Assembly (NCBI RefSeq): GCF_964204645.1
Contig: NC_134028.1
Location: 17,367,653-17,431,652 of the forward strand
Length of the DNA stretch: 64,000 nt
Source of the DNA: Tubulanus polymorphus
Lineage: Eukaryota; Animalia; Nemertea
Reading direction: 5' to 3'
In this document: positions 8,132-28,479 of the stretch, piece after piece
How the letters are laid out: each line of letters begins with the position of its first letter
Numbering within the stretch: the first letter of the stretch is position 1
The notes under the pieces: generated by a model
The model's input: the letters and a program-made list of their open reading frames with translations, nothing else
Told to the model about the DNA's origin: nothing
Database searches by the model: none
Made by a program: the position numbers and the translations under genes

Positions 8132-9139
8132 GCGTCAAGTCGACATGAATATGTCGATATATCGTGACGTTTTGACGACATATTTCGTTTTCTCAACCAT
8201 TTCCCTCGCGACAAGTCGACATATTCATGACGACTTGAAACTCAGTCGCCATATTACTAGCCTCCTCATCTTACATTTAGACATGTCTTCAAATACGGAA
8301 GCGATAAGGGGCCTCGAGATGTCGCGTTCCAACTCGACAAGTCGTCATATTTATGTCGATATATCGCGTCAAGTCGATATGAATATGTCGATATATCGTG
8401 ACGTTTTGACGACATATTCCGTTTTCTCGACCATTTTCCTCGCGACAAGTCGATATATTTATGACGACTTGATACTCAGTCGTCTTATTTCTGGTGTCTT
8501 CGTCTTCTATATCGGCGCGTCGTCAAATTTATGGCGACTTGTCGTGACCTTATTGCGACTTGTCGACAAAAAATGTCGTCATGTCACGAAGTTTATTCGA
8601 CAAATCAACTTTCCAATGTCGACTGTGAAGCCGTGTCACTGAAATCATGTCGTCAGATCGCGATAGCCTTCTCGATAACTCGACAAAATTTTGTCGACTA
8701 GTGAGGATACACCGACAAGTCGATGCAGATACGTCGACTTGTTTTGACGTCGCGAAAAGTGTCCTAATTTGTACATGCAACCGATGCAGGCCTACCACCG
8801 TTACCAGTGCCGCTGACATACACAGGTCCAAGGAATCGTTTGTGTGTCCCAGTAAGTACATACTGATATGCACGCTGGAATCTTTCAGTCCAACTAAATG
8901 GACGTATCAGCAAGCACTATGGTGCACAGGCGAAGGCTCATTGTGCCATTTCAGTACATAGATATGTTACAAAATTAGTCTATATGGCCCTTTTAAGAAA
9001 ATTCACCCATCCCCTTCCGAAATATAAAAAAAAATTACAGGGCGTCCACGTTGCACCTGAATGTTTACAAGCAGGCCTTACGTTTTTATTGACACGTTTT
9101 GTTCTCACGTTTTATCTCATGTAATTATCATTTCAGGAG

Positions 9140-10330
9140 ATGGATATAGATGTCTTAGTCCGTCATTATTTTGAAAGAATGTACACCGTGACAGAAATTC
9201 GAGCCTCTTTGGAAACCAATCACAGTATACTCATCAGTGAACGGACAATAAAACGCATTAAGAGGAGACTAGGATTGAGGATTCGGCGGGCAGAAGATCA
9301 TATTCAGTTAATCAGACTTATTTTGGAACTACATCAATCTGGTTATGAAAATTACGGTTACAGGAGCATTTGGAGGCTCCTCAATGTGGTGCATGGTGTC
9401 CGAGTCTCCCAAGATACCGTCCGACAATTCCTTGAAGCAATTGATCCCGAAGGTGTTTCTCTCCGTCGACACCGTCGCTTCCGGAGGAGACAATATATCA
9501 GTCAAGGTCCAAATTTTCTCATTCACATCGATGGCTACGATAAGCTAAAACCTTTCGGTATTGCCATCCACGCTGCAATAGATGGTTATTCTCGAAAGCT
9601 TCTTTGGCTCAAATGTGGACCGTCTAACAATAACCCCCGATACATTGCGCAATTTTACCTGGATTTCTTGAAAGAAATAGGGCGAGTACCGAGACTGCTA
9701 AGATGTGACCGAGGGACAGAAAATGCTATTTTGAGGGACATGCAAATTGTACTAAGATTCTCTCATGGCGACCTTATGCGTGGGATGAATAGCTTTATGT
9801 ATGGTAGATCGACTGCTAACCAACGAATTGAACGTTTCTGGTCACGACTTAGATTAAACTTCACTGACTTCTGGCGAAATATCTTCCTGGACATGAGGGA
9901 CACGGGCATATTTCATGACGCCGATGCCATACATGTACAATGTCTCCGATTCTGTTTCCTGCCTGTAATTCAACGACACCTAGACACGTACAGGACCATG
10001 TGGAATTCGCACCGAATAAGGCAGCAACGAAATGGGGAAGGGGGTTTCATTCCCAATATTGCATACGAATCGTGTGAGTTATTTGGGGCCGTCGATCACT
10101 CTTTCCCTTTATCGTGTCGTGTTGATGACCTAGATGAAGTATTTGGAGAATACGTTGACGAATATCCTGAAAGAGGGTGTAGCACTGAATTCTTAGACTT
10201 CATTCGCCGTGCTTGTCGAGCACAGAATAATCAACTTCCTCTTCCTACGTCACCCGATGATGCACTGCAACTTTTCCGAGCAGTTATTGCAGTGATCGAA
10301 ACGATTCAAGATCGTAACTTTATGAGATGA
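9140..10330 (+). CDS. IS3EU-like DDE transposase / rve integrase-core protein, 396 aa, intact
   Basis: N-terminal HTH-like region, GYR motif, GPNFLIHIDGYDKLKPFGIAIHAAIDGYSRK (D1), RCDRGTEN (D2), NQRIERFW (E), WNSHRIR. Splice acceptor ending at 9136 just before the ATG, and AATAAA at ~10387. Confidence 0.88.
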   Translation: MDIDVLVRHYFERMYTVTEIRASLETNHSILISERTIKRIKRRLGLRIRRAEDHIQLIRLILELHQSGYENYGYRSIWRLLNVVHGVRVSQDTVRQFLEAIDPEGVSLRRHRRFRRRQYISQGPNFLIHIDGYDKLKPFGIAIHAAIDGYSRKLLWLKCGPSNNNPRYIAQFYLDFLKEIGRVPRLLRCDRGTENAILRDMQIVLRFSHGDLMRGMNSFMYGRSTANQRIERFWSRLRLNFTDFWRNIFLDMRDTGIFHDADAIHVQCLRFCFLPVIQRHLDTYRTMWNSHRIRQQRNGEGGFIPNIAYESCELFGAVDHSFPLSCRVDDLDEVFGEYVDEYPERGCSTEFLDFIRRACRAQNNQLPLPTSPDDALQLFRAVIAVIETIQDRNFMR

Positions 10331-11099
10331 AATTGTAATATGTGTTCACATGTCAAATATCAAACATATACTTTGATTAGTAATTCAATAAAATGTGATG
10401 AAGATAATCGATAAATTTTTCAATTCTATGAATTATTAGAAATTCTGAGACAACAATTTTGAGGATTCAAGGACGATTATCAAATAGTATACCGAGCTAA
10501 AAACTGTCCTTTGTTACACGACGGGCAGCTTTTTACCCACTGGAAAAGTTGAATTTCTAAACCAGGTCCCACCACCTTAATGAAGATTCAACCTTGCCTT
10601 TTGAGATGACGATGAAAATTAGTCTGAATGGAGGTTTGAGGTTTGTACTGTGGACTGACTGGTCGTAAAGCTATACCCCATTTCATAACATCCGGTTGAA
10701 CATTAAAAATGAATAAAAAAAAAAAGAAATCAAGGACATTCAAAAAGAACAAAGTATAACTGATGGTCCCAATCCTGATAAATGTTGGAATAGAGAAAAT
10801 TGATTAATTATTCATTAATTAATTACTCATTTAATATTGATTAATGTTCCCGAAGTTTTCGGTTTTCGATGGATACCACACTTAAAATGATTCTGAAGAT
10901 TGCAAACTTTTTATAAACTTTTCAACTCACATACATTTTTCCATCAGAGGCATAATGACAGCCGTTACAGGCTAAGGTTTATCTGCCGATATCTTGTAAA
11001 CTAATCGAGATAGAACAGAAGTTAAAACGGTTTTCAACAGAAAAGGACGTGTGGCTTTCAGATGATATACGTTTGGTGGCAGTATCATAAAAACCAGGC

Positions 11100-11204
11100 T
11101 GCAGTTCCACAGTTCGGAATTAAGATTTGACCCTGAGTTAACACATTGAAAATGAACTAATTTTAACTCAGAGTTAACTCTAACTCACAACTGTGGAACC
11201 GGGT
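11100..11204. mobile_element. ~105-bp palindromic MITE; second copy inverted at ~25437-25543
   Basis: gttccacagtt...aactgtggaac termini with internal gagttaa/ttaactc repeats, shared by both copies. Confidence 0.6.
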
Positions 11205-26014: not shown

Positions 26015-26220
26015 TCAGCGTACTATAAAAGTAATGATGTAAGGTAAAATAGTAGAAGTTAACACTTAGCCGTGGGCCTACGCCAGTTAAATATCCACTT
26101 CGTTTTAAAAATGGCTAAATTTTCTCAATTCAACATGGGAAAATTAAGACCTTTTCGTCAGACGAAAATAGATATACTCTCAAATCAAGTAGAAATAGAC
26201 ATTGGATATCAATCAGCCTT

Positions 26221-27453
26221 CTGTGTGTGTGTGTGTGCGTGCGTGCGTGCGTGCGGTGCGTGCGCGCGCGCGCGCGCGCGCGAGTCTGTGTCTGTGTGTG
26301 TGTGTCTGTGTGTGTGTGTCTGTGTGTGTGTGTCTGTGTGTGTGTGTCTGTGTGTGTGTGTCTGTGTGTGTGTGTGTGTGTCTGTGTGTGTGTGTCTGTG
26401 TGTGTCTGTGTGTGTGTGTCTGTGTGTGTGTGTCTGTGTGTGTGTCTGTGTGTGTGTGTCTGTGTGTGTGTGTCTGTGTGTGTGTGTCTGTGTGTGTGTG
26501 TGTGTGTCTGTGTGTGTGTGTGTCTGTGTGTGTGTGTGTCTGTGTGTGTGTGTGTCTGTGTGCGTGTGTGTCTGTGTGCGTGTGTGTCTGTGTGCGTGTG
26601 TGTCTGTGTGCGTGTGTGTCTGTGTGTGTGTGTCTGTGTGTGTGTGTCTGTGTGTGTGTGTCTGTGTGTGTGTGTCTGTGTGTGTGTGTCTGTGTGTGTG
26701 TGTGTCTGTGTGTGTGTGTCTGTGTGTGTGTGTCTGTGTGTGTGTGTCTGTGTGTGTGTGTCTGTGTGTGTGTGTATGTGTGTGTGTGTGTGTGTGTGTG
26801 TGTCTGTGTGTGTGTCTGTGTGTGTGTGTCTGTGTGTGTGTGTCTGTGTGTGTGTGTCTGTGTGTGTGTGTCTGTGTGTGTGTGTCTGTGTCTGTGTGTC
26901 TGTGTGTGTGTGTCTGTGTGTGTGTGTCTGTGTGTGTGTGTCTGTGTGTCTGTGTGTGTGTGTCTGTGTGTGTGTCTGTGTGTGTGTGTCTGTGTGTGTG
27001 TGTGTGTGTGTGTGTCTGTGTGTGTGTGTCTGTGTGTGTGTGTGTCTGTGTGTGTGTGTCTGTGTGTGTGTGTCTGTGTGTGTGTGCGTGCGTGCGTGCG
27101 TGCGTGTGTGCGTGTGTGTGTCTGTGTGCGTGTGTGTGTGTGTGCGTGTGTGTGTGTGTGCGTGTGTGTGTGTGTGTGTGTGTGTGTGTGTGTGTGTGTG
27201 TGTGTGTGTGTGTGTGTGTGTGTGTGTGTGTGTGTGTGTGTGTGTGTGTGTGTGTGTGTGTGTGTGTGTGTGTGTGTGTGTGTGTGTGTGTGTGTGTGTG
27301 TGTCTGTGTGTGTGTGTCTGTGTGTGTGTGTCTGTGTGTGTGTGTGTGTGTGTCTGTGTGTGTGTGTGTCTGTGTGTGTGTCTGTGTGTGTGTCTGTGTG
27401 TGTGTCTGTGTGTGTGTCTGTGTGTGTGTCTGTGTGTGTGTCTGTGTGTGTGT
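26221..27453. repeat. ~1.2-kb compound (TG)n / (TGTGTGTGTGTC)n microsatellite
   Basis: Direct reading. Confidence 0.99.
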
Positions 27454-28479
27454 GGTTCGAACCCTGCAATTCCAAAACCTGCCAAAATATTCACGTGCAA
27501 ATGAACCCAGCCTTCGTGCGCGTGGGGCCGTCGCGCAGTTTTGGTCATAAGTCTCAGTGGAAGTACGGCCAGTGCCACGAACCGGGGACTAGAGGCCTGG
27601 CCCCCACTGGGTGGGTGAGCTTAAAAAGATCCAATGCATGCCTTTGCTTACCTCAGCATACACGTGAAGCTTTACCCGACACCGGCTTTGAAAGTCCTGA
27701 ATGATGCTGCGCCAGCGGTTGAGGGCGTTTAAGAAATTAGGACACTTTTCGCGACGTCAAAACAAGTCGACGTATCTGCATCGACTTGTCGGTGTATCCT
27801 CACTAGTCGACAAAATTTTGCCGAGTTATCGAGAAGGCTATCGCGATCTGACGACATGATTTCGGTGACACGGCTTCACAGTCGACATTGGAAAGTTGAT
27901 TCGTCGAATAAACTTCGTGACATGACGACATTTTTTGTCGACAAGTCGCAATAAGGTCACGACAAGTCGCCATAAATTTGACGACGCGCCGATATAGAAG
28001 ACGAAGATACCAGAAATAAGACGACTGAGTATCAAGTCGTCATAAATATATCGACCTGTCGCCAGGAAAATGGTCGAGAAAACGGAATATGTCGTCAAAA
28101 CGTCACGATATATCGACATATTCATATCGACTTGACGCAATATATCGCGATATATCGACATAAATATGACGACTTGTCGAGTTGGAACGCGACATCTCGA
28201 GGCCCCTTATCGCTTCCGCACTTCAAATGACGGCTTGTCCCGGGGAAAATGAGCAAATAAGCGAAATTTGTCGTGAAAACGTCACGATATGTAGACATAT
28301 TCATGTGGACTTGACACGATATATCGCGATATATCGACATAAATATGGCGACTTGTCGAGTTTGAACGCGACAACTCGAGGCCCTTTATCGCTTCCGTAC
28401 TATATCAGATTAATCGACTTCAAAATAGGCGAAAGCATGTGTCTTTATTACGTTATTAATTCGCCTAATTATTCAAAAA

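Follow-up and report, generated by a model that had tools for sequence, protein, structure and literature searches.

Few transposon superfamilies have been studied as little as IS3EU (PMC11934779, PMC8232023). Its described members each code for two proteins (PMC8232023, after Kojima 2019), and no role for the second gene of animal IS3EU was found in the literature passages searched. Terminal inverted repeats (TIRs) of IS3EU and GingerRoot elements end in TAYGG..CCRTA, occasionally TG..CA in GingerRoot (PMC10045372, PMC6839031), and their target-site duplications (TSDs) are usually 6 bp, with a minority of 7–8 bp (7 bp in 5/77 GingerRoot elements; PMC6839031). In fungal IS3EU, TET/JBP and alpha-kinase genes are also standing accessory genes, the kinase gene lying opposite the transposase (PMC12730594), and Helitron deubiquitinases (PMC9741609) provide a precedent for transposon-borne ubiquitin-system enzymes; these accessory enzymes differ in kind, and none combines CIDE-N with RING (PMC12730594, PMC9741609). 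Here we analyse a DNA element at positions 8294–28220 of a 64,000-nucleotide stretch of the ribbon worm Tubulanus polymorphus (NC_134028.1, positions 17,367,653 to 17,431,652; the whole stretch is called the window), which carries an IS3EU/GingerRoot-type transposase and, convergent with it, a gene with CIDE-N and RING exons.

We consider it probable (roughly 0.6) that this cargo is the element's own accessory ubiquitin-ligase (E3) gene with swapped end modules, damaged in this copy, the intact form of which would ubiquitinate a target relevant to transposition. We favour this because relatives of the element carry a convergent HECT-like gene and mussel CIDE-N/RING proteins share the middle domain of that gene. 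The superfamily and its two-gene plan are already known; the CIDE-N/RING version was not found in the literature searched, where no CIDE-N or RING appeared in IS3EU among the matches listed, and Repbase Reports and Kojima 2019, which lay outside that search, may describe it.

Insertion and classification of the element

The ends, target sites and transposase gene of the element, with the corresponding empty site, are as follows.
8287–8293: left TSD, CTTCAAA
8294–8770, plus strand: left TIR, 477 nt, first bases TACGG
8771–8851, plus strand: candidate short 5' exon of the transposase gene, proposed from sequence only
9140–10330, plus strand: IS3EU/GingerRoot-type DDE transposase, 396 aa, with an N-terminal helix-turn-helix (HTH), in an open reading frame (ORF)
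27734–28220, minus strand: right TIR, 487 nt, last bases CCGCA
28221–28227: right TSD, CTTCAAA
61959–62374: uninterrupted copy of the host miniature inverted-repeat transposable element (MITE), with the empty site at 62196–62202

The proposal of an earlier sequence-only reading, that the whole segment 8294–28220 is one insertion, was borne out. The two TIRs are identical at 470 of 477 aligned bases, with one 10-nt indel, and the flanks, when joined without the element, align without gaps to 62038–62395, in which CTTCAAA occurs once, at the empty site. The target of the insertion was an approximately 420-bp MITE with the same terminal sequence as the element, located within a high-copy repeat (about 450–770x depth in read run X5). 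The whole element thus entered a MITE belonging to its own family in one event, duplicating 7 bp, and the insertion is real rather than a chance resemblance. The empty site is present where the sequence-only reading had placed it, but the "sister repeat" that holds it is one of many copies, because the target MITE sits inside the high-copy repeat. The 19.9-kb length given by that reading has correct ends, but 5.3 kb of the span is a younger, nested long terminal repeat (LTR) retrotransposon, so that the DNA element itself measures about 14.6 kb (14,594 bp).

The MITE at 61959–62374 is flanked by CTATATG and CTATATC, and a second copy of its left flank (1831–1837) reads CTATATC; this MITE itself likely made a 7-bp TSD (CTATATC). 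Within the window the TSD length is 7 bp for the element and ambiguous, 6 or 7, for one further MITE. The target sites of the family start with CT, namely CTTCAAA (8294–28220), CTTCAAG/CTCAAAG (16022–16336) and CTATATC (61959–62374); a target preference, as also suggested by the insertion into its own MITE, is possible from these three sites. The right end of the element, CCGCA, is one transition away from CCGTA, and the other right-type ends of its terminal family in the window (n = 6) read CCGTA or CCATA.

The transposase ORF, which had been described as intact, is indeed open over its 396 aa and matches PF24764 (E 5.9e-36) and HTH_21 (E 5.2e-10), with the catalytic residues D131, D190 and E231 conserved; no H2C2 (HHCC) match was found in it by Pfam scan. 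The candidate exon at 8771–8851 is followed by the donor GTAAGT at 8852 and by a pyrimidine-rich acceptor that ends at 9136, and is a possible 5' exon of this gene. The transposase has its nearest relative, at 95% identity, in a truncated copy located on a different T. polymorphus chromosome from that of the cargo-matching record, and the next named matches, at about 53% identity, come from mussels and scallops.

By its termini, TSD and two-gene layout, compared with published descriptions, the element fits IS3EU/GingerRoot, the transposase tree considered below being one without a named IS3EU reference; the layout and termini also match IS3EU as presented in PMC12730594. In common with this group it has an integrase-like DDE transposase without HHCC, long TIRs, a TACGG terminus, a size within the range and a second gene. 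Unlike the usual member it has a TSD of the 7-bp minority class instead of 6 bp, TIRs of about 480 nt compared with 100–150 in GingerRoot (PMC6839031), a right end whose sequence in the present copy is CCGCA, and CIDE-N and RING in its second gene.

The convergent CIDE-N/RING gene

Six stretches on the minus strand belong, or may belong, to the convergent gene.
18630–18788, minus strand: CIDE-N exon, C-terminal (acidic) part; its ORF matches Pfam positions 25–75 of 76 (E 6.4e-12)
17529–17579, minus strand: linker exon of 17 codons, matching part of XP_074649036.1 exactly
17171–17238, minus strand: short basic helix exon, identical to part of RefSeq XP_074649036.1
15690–15872, minus strand: acidic linker exon, phase 0-0, with a predicted joining to its neighbours
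14822–15067, minus strand: last exon, with a C3HC4 RING finger (E 9.4e-14), then TAA
27646–27659, minus strand: candidate first exon of the accessory gene, ATG then donor GTAAGC, proposed from the letters alone

The description of a convergent spliced CIDE-N/RING gene in the sequence-only reading held for five exons in one frame on the minus strand, but not for a complete gene, the first half of CIDE-N and the exon for a ubiquitin-like domain, known from relatives described below, being missing. The five exons have AG/GT ends and, when joined, form an uninterrupted frame of 235 codons, the stop being counted. The RING exon keeps all eight zinc ligands and is of the C-terminal zf-C3HC4_3 type; the CIDE-N/RING protein is a putative E3. 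RefSeq XP_074649036.1 contains the first three exons exactly and begins within CIDE-N.

A search for the N-terminal half of CIDE-N (2917 candidate donors window-wide) reached a best score of 1.4 bits within the element; held-out true halves used as a control scored 2.2–37.8 bits, with 7/8 at ≥8.5 bits; a very divergent exon could have escaped. The candidate first exon sits just inside the right TIR and its phase is incompatible with the exon at 18788. Because the first CIDE-N half and the ubiquitin-like exon are missing, the window copy is probably a decayed or truncated allele, and it probably cannot make a folded CIDE-N. The window intron at the position of the mussel ubiquitin-like exon consists mostly of nested repeats, and the mussel exon seems to be of phase 0-0, as judged on read-through ORFs; a frame-neutral loss of this exon is therefore plausible.

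Mussel proteins and HECT-carrying elements

When the CIDE-N exon was used as a query against 1.84 billion representatives, 14 matches were obtained, one of which, from Mytilus trossulus, has both CIDE-N and a C-terminal RING, and a search with that protein revealed 3 clusters, from Mytilus only. In M. trossulus there are three loci, each on its own chromosome, and at one of these CIDE-N stands alone; in M. californianus there are six LOC ids, distributed over four or more scaffolds. Proteins of the same species are 98–100% identical. Dispersal of this kind resembles the behaviour of transposon genes, and could also be given by segmental duplicates or haplotigs. The Mytilus proteins XP_063407171.1 and XP_052098764.1 have the same order as the window gene, that is, CIDE-N, a short basic helix, an acidic stretch and a C-terminal RING, with identities to the window of 49–51% over the CIDE-N exon (23/45 and 24/49) and 44% over RING (26/59). 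Unlike the window copy, they retain the ubiquitin-like domain, and the M. trossulus protein retains the whole CIDE-N. As the window copy is damaged, further study should turn to the mussel proteins.

Three M. trossulus proteins (P0144, P0145 and P0148) are annotated as "lipid transferase CIDEA-like", and P0148 is identical at 135/135 residues to the N-terminus of the CIDE-N/RING protein; it is probably a truncated copy of the dispersed CIDE-N/RING gene and not CIDEA. Another candidate relative, P0122, was rejected as a composition match, being a bacterial-like repeat protein with no CIDE-N.

Transposases related to that of the window were collected at 80 metagenome loci, 40 of which extend at least 1.5 kb downstream. 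A convergent HECT-like ORF was present in 24 of these 40 (21/36 after merging of four near-duplicate pairs; 14/29 without the seven profile seeds), and every domain match (34/34) lies on the strand opposite the transposase. With Pfam's own models, HECT is recognised in 9 of 23 locus ORFs scanned, which come from 14 loci. The family as a whole has a slot, opposite the transposase, that holds an E3-type gene. Two of these HECT-like loci (L032 and L042) are complete elements with TACGG..CCGTA ends and 6-bp TSDs. The HECT-like profile has no match in the window, where RING is found instead.

Four of these loci (L006, L008, L032 and L060) have convergent genes with a domain that is matched by ~110 residues in the middle of the mussel proteins (hhalign 97%, E 4.8e-11), and a profile of this domain built without mussel sequences scores the mussel proteins at 30–38 bits, compared with 7.4 for the best of 500 shuffles. 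Comparison of a model of the domain (pLDDT 75.5) with the PDB returned ubiquitin-like folds in nearly all top rows, with a middling best Z of 8.1 and a root-mean-square deviation of 2.4–2.8 over 80–84 residues; the middle domain of the mussel and HECT genes is thus predicted to be ubiquitin-like. An earlier model from 5 near-identical rows had a pLDDT of 39.9 and was discarded. Complex prediction for a mussel-type transposase (P0006) and the ubiquitin-like domain of P0150 gave a score of 0.00, in a run without alignments and with uncertain cognate pairing. A SAM match at the N-terminus of the HECT genes was weak (1/3, E 0.044). HECT-type accessory genes also contain a UBX-like stretch (L006:3225-4889, E 1.5e-4; L007:5360-5920, E 7.7e-3), which strengthens their ubiquitin-system character.

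The HECT-carrying IS3EU-type elements (L006, L008, L032) are accordingly similar to the window element in having a related transposase and a convergent second gene that ends in an E3-type domain, and the middle ubiquitin-like domain is common to them and the mussel CIDE-N/RING proteins. The window and mussel gene differs from the HECT type in having RING in place of HECT, an N-terminal CIDE-N and no UBX-like part; the window element further differs in its separate transposase clade and in the lack of the middle domain in this copy. In the transposase tree, the window sequence groups with every one of the 11 Mytilus rows in a clade of 57 rows (SH-aLRT 99), apart from the 18 HECT-side rows, which speaks for the favoured explanation.

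Read depth and copy number

Depths were taken from read runs X5 and X1; they have no single-copy baseline, and X1 may be the source of the window. Of the further runs, X7 contributed 2 short records, X6 none and X8 matches to repeats only, an outcome neutral as to expression. In X5, the transposase had a depth of about 57x, the RING exon 20–24x, the acidic exon 15x, the short exons 9–12x and the CIDE-N exon 8.5x. Contig depths in X1 were 176 for the transposase, 85–92 for the RING region and 49–60 for the CIDE-N side. The RING region was thus about 1.5x as deep as the CIDE-N exon in X1 and 2.3–2.8x as deep in X5. The X1 contig of the RING region had 6–11 differences from the window and the CIDE-N contig had 0; at least one exonic variant, non-synonymous and at 14845, was present among the rows listed. 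A second RING-region allele or copy is present, and the RING part likely lies at more than one locus.

Origin and possible function of the cargo

The favoured explanation, an accessory ligase gene proper to the element, would involve a lineage that retained the middle domain, gained an N-terminal CIDE-N and replaced HECT with RING, such that its intact members would encode CIDE-N, the ubiquitin-like domain and RING in the accessory slot. CIDE-N may serve as an oligomerising scaffold that polymerises the intact protein, because CIDE domains form head-to-tail filaments via opposed charged faces (PMC8647176), and RING would act as the ligase. The ubiquitinated target could be the element's transposase or else a factor of the host, active in repair or silencing, that limits transposition. 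A damaged accessory gene would be no bar to mobility, as the TIRs alone would let the transposase move this copy. If the HECT and CIDE-N/RING versions share one scaffold, the conserved property would be that of a ubiquitin ligase, achieved via two unrelated catalytic modules. If the explanation is true, it would also provide a testable case for IS3EU transposons using ubiquitination to control a transposase or host factor, and the multi-copy "CIDEA-like" and CIDE-N/RING annotations in mussel and ribbon worm would refer to transposon genes, not to host apoptosis genes.

Several results weigh against this explanation. The three linker exons of the window share 4–5 identities with the mussel proteins, with no significant likeness, and the window CIDE-N is about equally close to unrelated CIDE-N proteins and to the mussel one. 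The ubiquitin-like domain of the mussel and HECT genes gives no match in the window, and no CIDE-N or RING of the window type occurs in the 80 metagenome loci, including two of the window's own clade (L001 and L009). Among the matches listed (15/43 and 15/35 of the large clusters), the LOC numbers of the mussel CIDE-N/RING genes are not adjacent to those of transposases. The transposase tree is a quick version whose protein rows were selected by similarity to the window. Cargo exon depth in X5 is 15–42% of transposase depth, so most transposase-bearing copies would be without this cargo at ≥88% identity; the retention of both genes in several copies, which the sequence-only reading had named as support, is therefore only weakly indicated. 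Finally, XP_074649036.1 ends in the intron after its third exon, before RING.

The low cargo depth and the 5' truncation would both suit a one-off capture, in which the 3' portion of a CIDE-N/RING gene of the host was taken up, as GingerRoot elements and Pack-MULEs do, and is now functionless and decaying. Gene fragments are present in 22/77 GingerRoot elements (PMC6839031), and protein searches found a single Tubulanus protein with the window CIDE-N exon. However, no host parent gene turned up in the same type of search, the host genome itself not having been searched; the gene lies where the HECT genes lie and points the same way; and the sole other CIDE-N plus RING proteins found are dispersed, near-identical mussel copies that share a domain with transposase-linked genes. 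Because a dispersed family in two mussel species has a domain in common with the second gene of related transposons, the cargo is probably not a one-off capture, and we regard this origin as unlikely. The second RING-region allele or copy in the reads also speaks for the favoured explanation. The single frame could also have arisen by chance if the CIDE-N exons and the RING exon were separate remnants within the element, as the three-exon RefSeq model and the deeper coverage of the RING region would allow; but each of the five exons is bounded by canonical splice ends and fits its neighbours in phase, their order, strand and C-terminal end agree with single mussel proteins, and loss of the apparently phase 0-0 ubiquitin-like exon would keep the frame, which makes a chance assembly very improbable.

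The sequence-only reading had suggested that the element, with a candidate modulator of apoptotic DNA fragmentation, could be an anti-apoptosis or selfish system. In that case, the intact protein would bind CAD/DFF40 or its inhibitor by CIDE–CIDE contact and ubiquitinate it through RING, thereby letting cells outlive the cuts that the transposase makes. IAPs likewise have a C-terminal RING of the zf-C3HC4_3 type, viral IAPs included, and DFF45/ICAD, DFF40/CAD and the CIDE proteins have CIDE-N in common with the window gene. CIDE domains mediate DFF40–DFF45 binding (PMC8647176), and the full CIDE-N of the mussel protein could still bind CAD or ICAD. Self-polymerisation and functions in lipid metabolism are known for the same domains too (PMC8647176), so a CIDE domain alone is no proof of a role in apoptosis. 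Unlike the DFF/CIDE proteins and IAPs, the window gene was found to have no DFF-C, nuclease, CIDE-C or BIR. In Pfam scans, no DFF-C, DFF40 nuclease or BIR was detected in the window exon ORFs P0121, P0142 and P0143 (other parts of the element lay outside the scan), and no DFF-C, DFF40 or BIR in the mussel CIDE-N/RING proteins; the same scan did find DFF-C and DFF40 in true family members. Viral contigs searched with P0142 gave no match. Moreover, the slot in the relatives holds a HECT-like gene with neither CIDE-N nor a link to apoptosis, the window copy is without the N-terminal half of CIDE-N, and CAD acts after caspase activation, which is late for a rescue. The anti-apoptotic role is thus unsupported, and it is improbable that an IS3EU lineage of ribbon worms and mussels bears a CIDE-N-armed ligase directed at CAD/ICAD; if it did, no transposon would have been found before to encode a suppressor of apoptotic DNA fragmentation.

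Nested insertions and neighbouring repeats

Besides several high-copy repeats, the element contains the following insertions.
13795–14143: partial MITE, nested, of the same terminal family
14413–14786: nested MITE of the same terminal family, directly 3' of the RING stop codon
16022–16336: nested MITE of the same terminal family, in the intron where mussel genes hold the ubiquitin-like exon
19448–24775, minus strand: nested LTR retrotransposon, foreign to the DNA element, with LTRs at 19448–19699 and 24522–24775
26212–27452: CA/TG microsatellite, ~1.2 kb

The LTRs of the retrotransposon are identical at 251/252 bases and it has its own TSD, CTCTG. It encodes a SCAN domain in a gag-like ORF and an integrase ahead of the reverse transcriptase and RNase H, an order that we take to be Gmr1-like, with one in-frame stop between its two ORFs. 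A palindromic MITE at 24825–25294 is inserted in a repeat beside it.

The flanks of the element (585–8298 and 28221–30671) and the region 54927–63907 are two diverged copies (80–96%) of the high-copy repeat unit. The stretch 61873–62040, which includes the left end of the MITE, is absent before 8129 and is found at 1751–1919 beside another MITE end, which amounts to a rearrangement at MITE termini. Arrays of a 31-bp satellite adjoin the MITE in both repeat copies (28420–30200 and 62400–63500). Further downstream, 30752–47955 is an element, presumably Polinton/Maverick-like, with 554-nt TIRs (99% alike), numerous ORFs free of introns and, close to its right end, one ORF of 1358 aa. Two overlapping ORFs on the minus strand at 50546–52176, one of which matches DUF1280 (E 2.8e-24), are probably another broken transposase.

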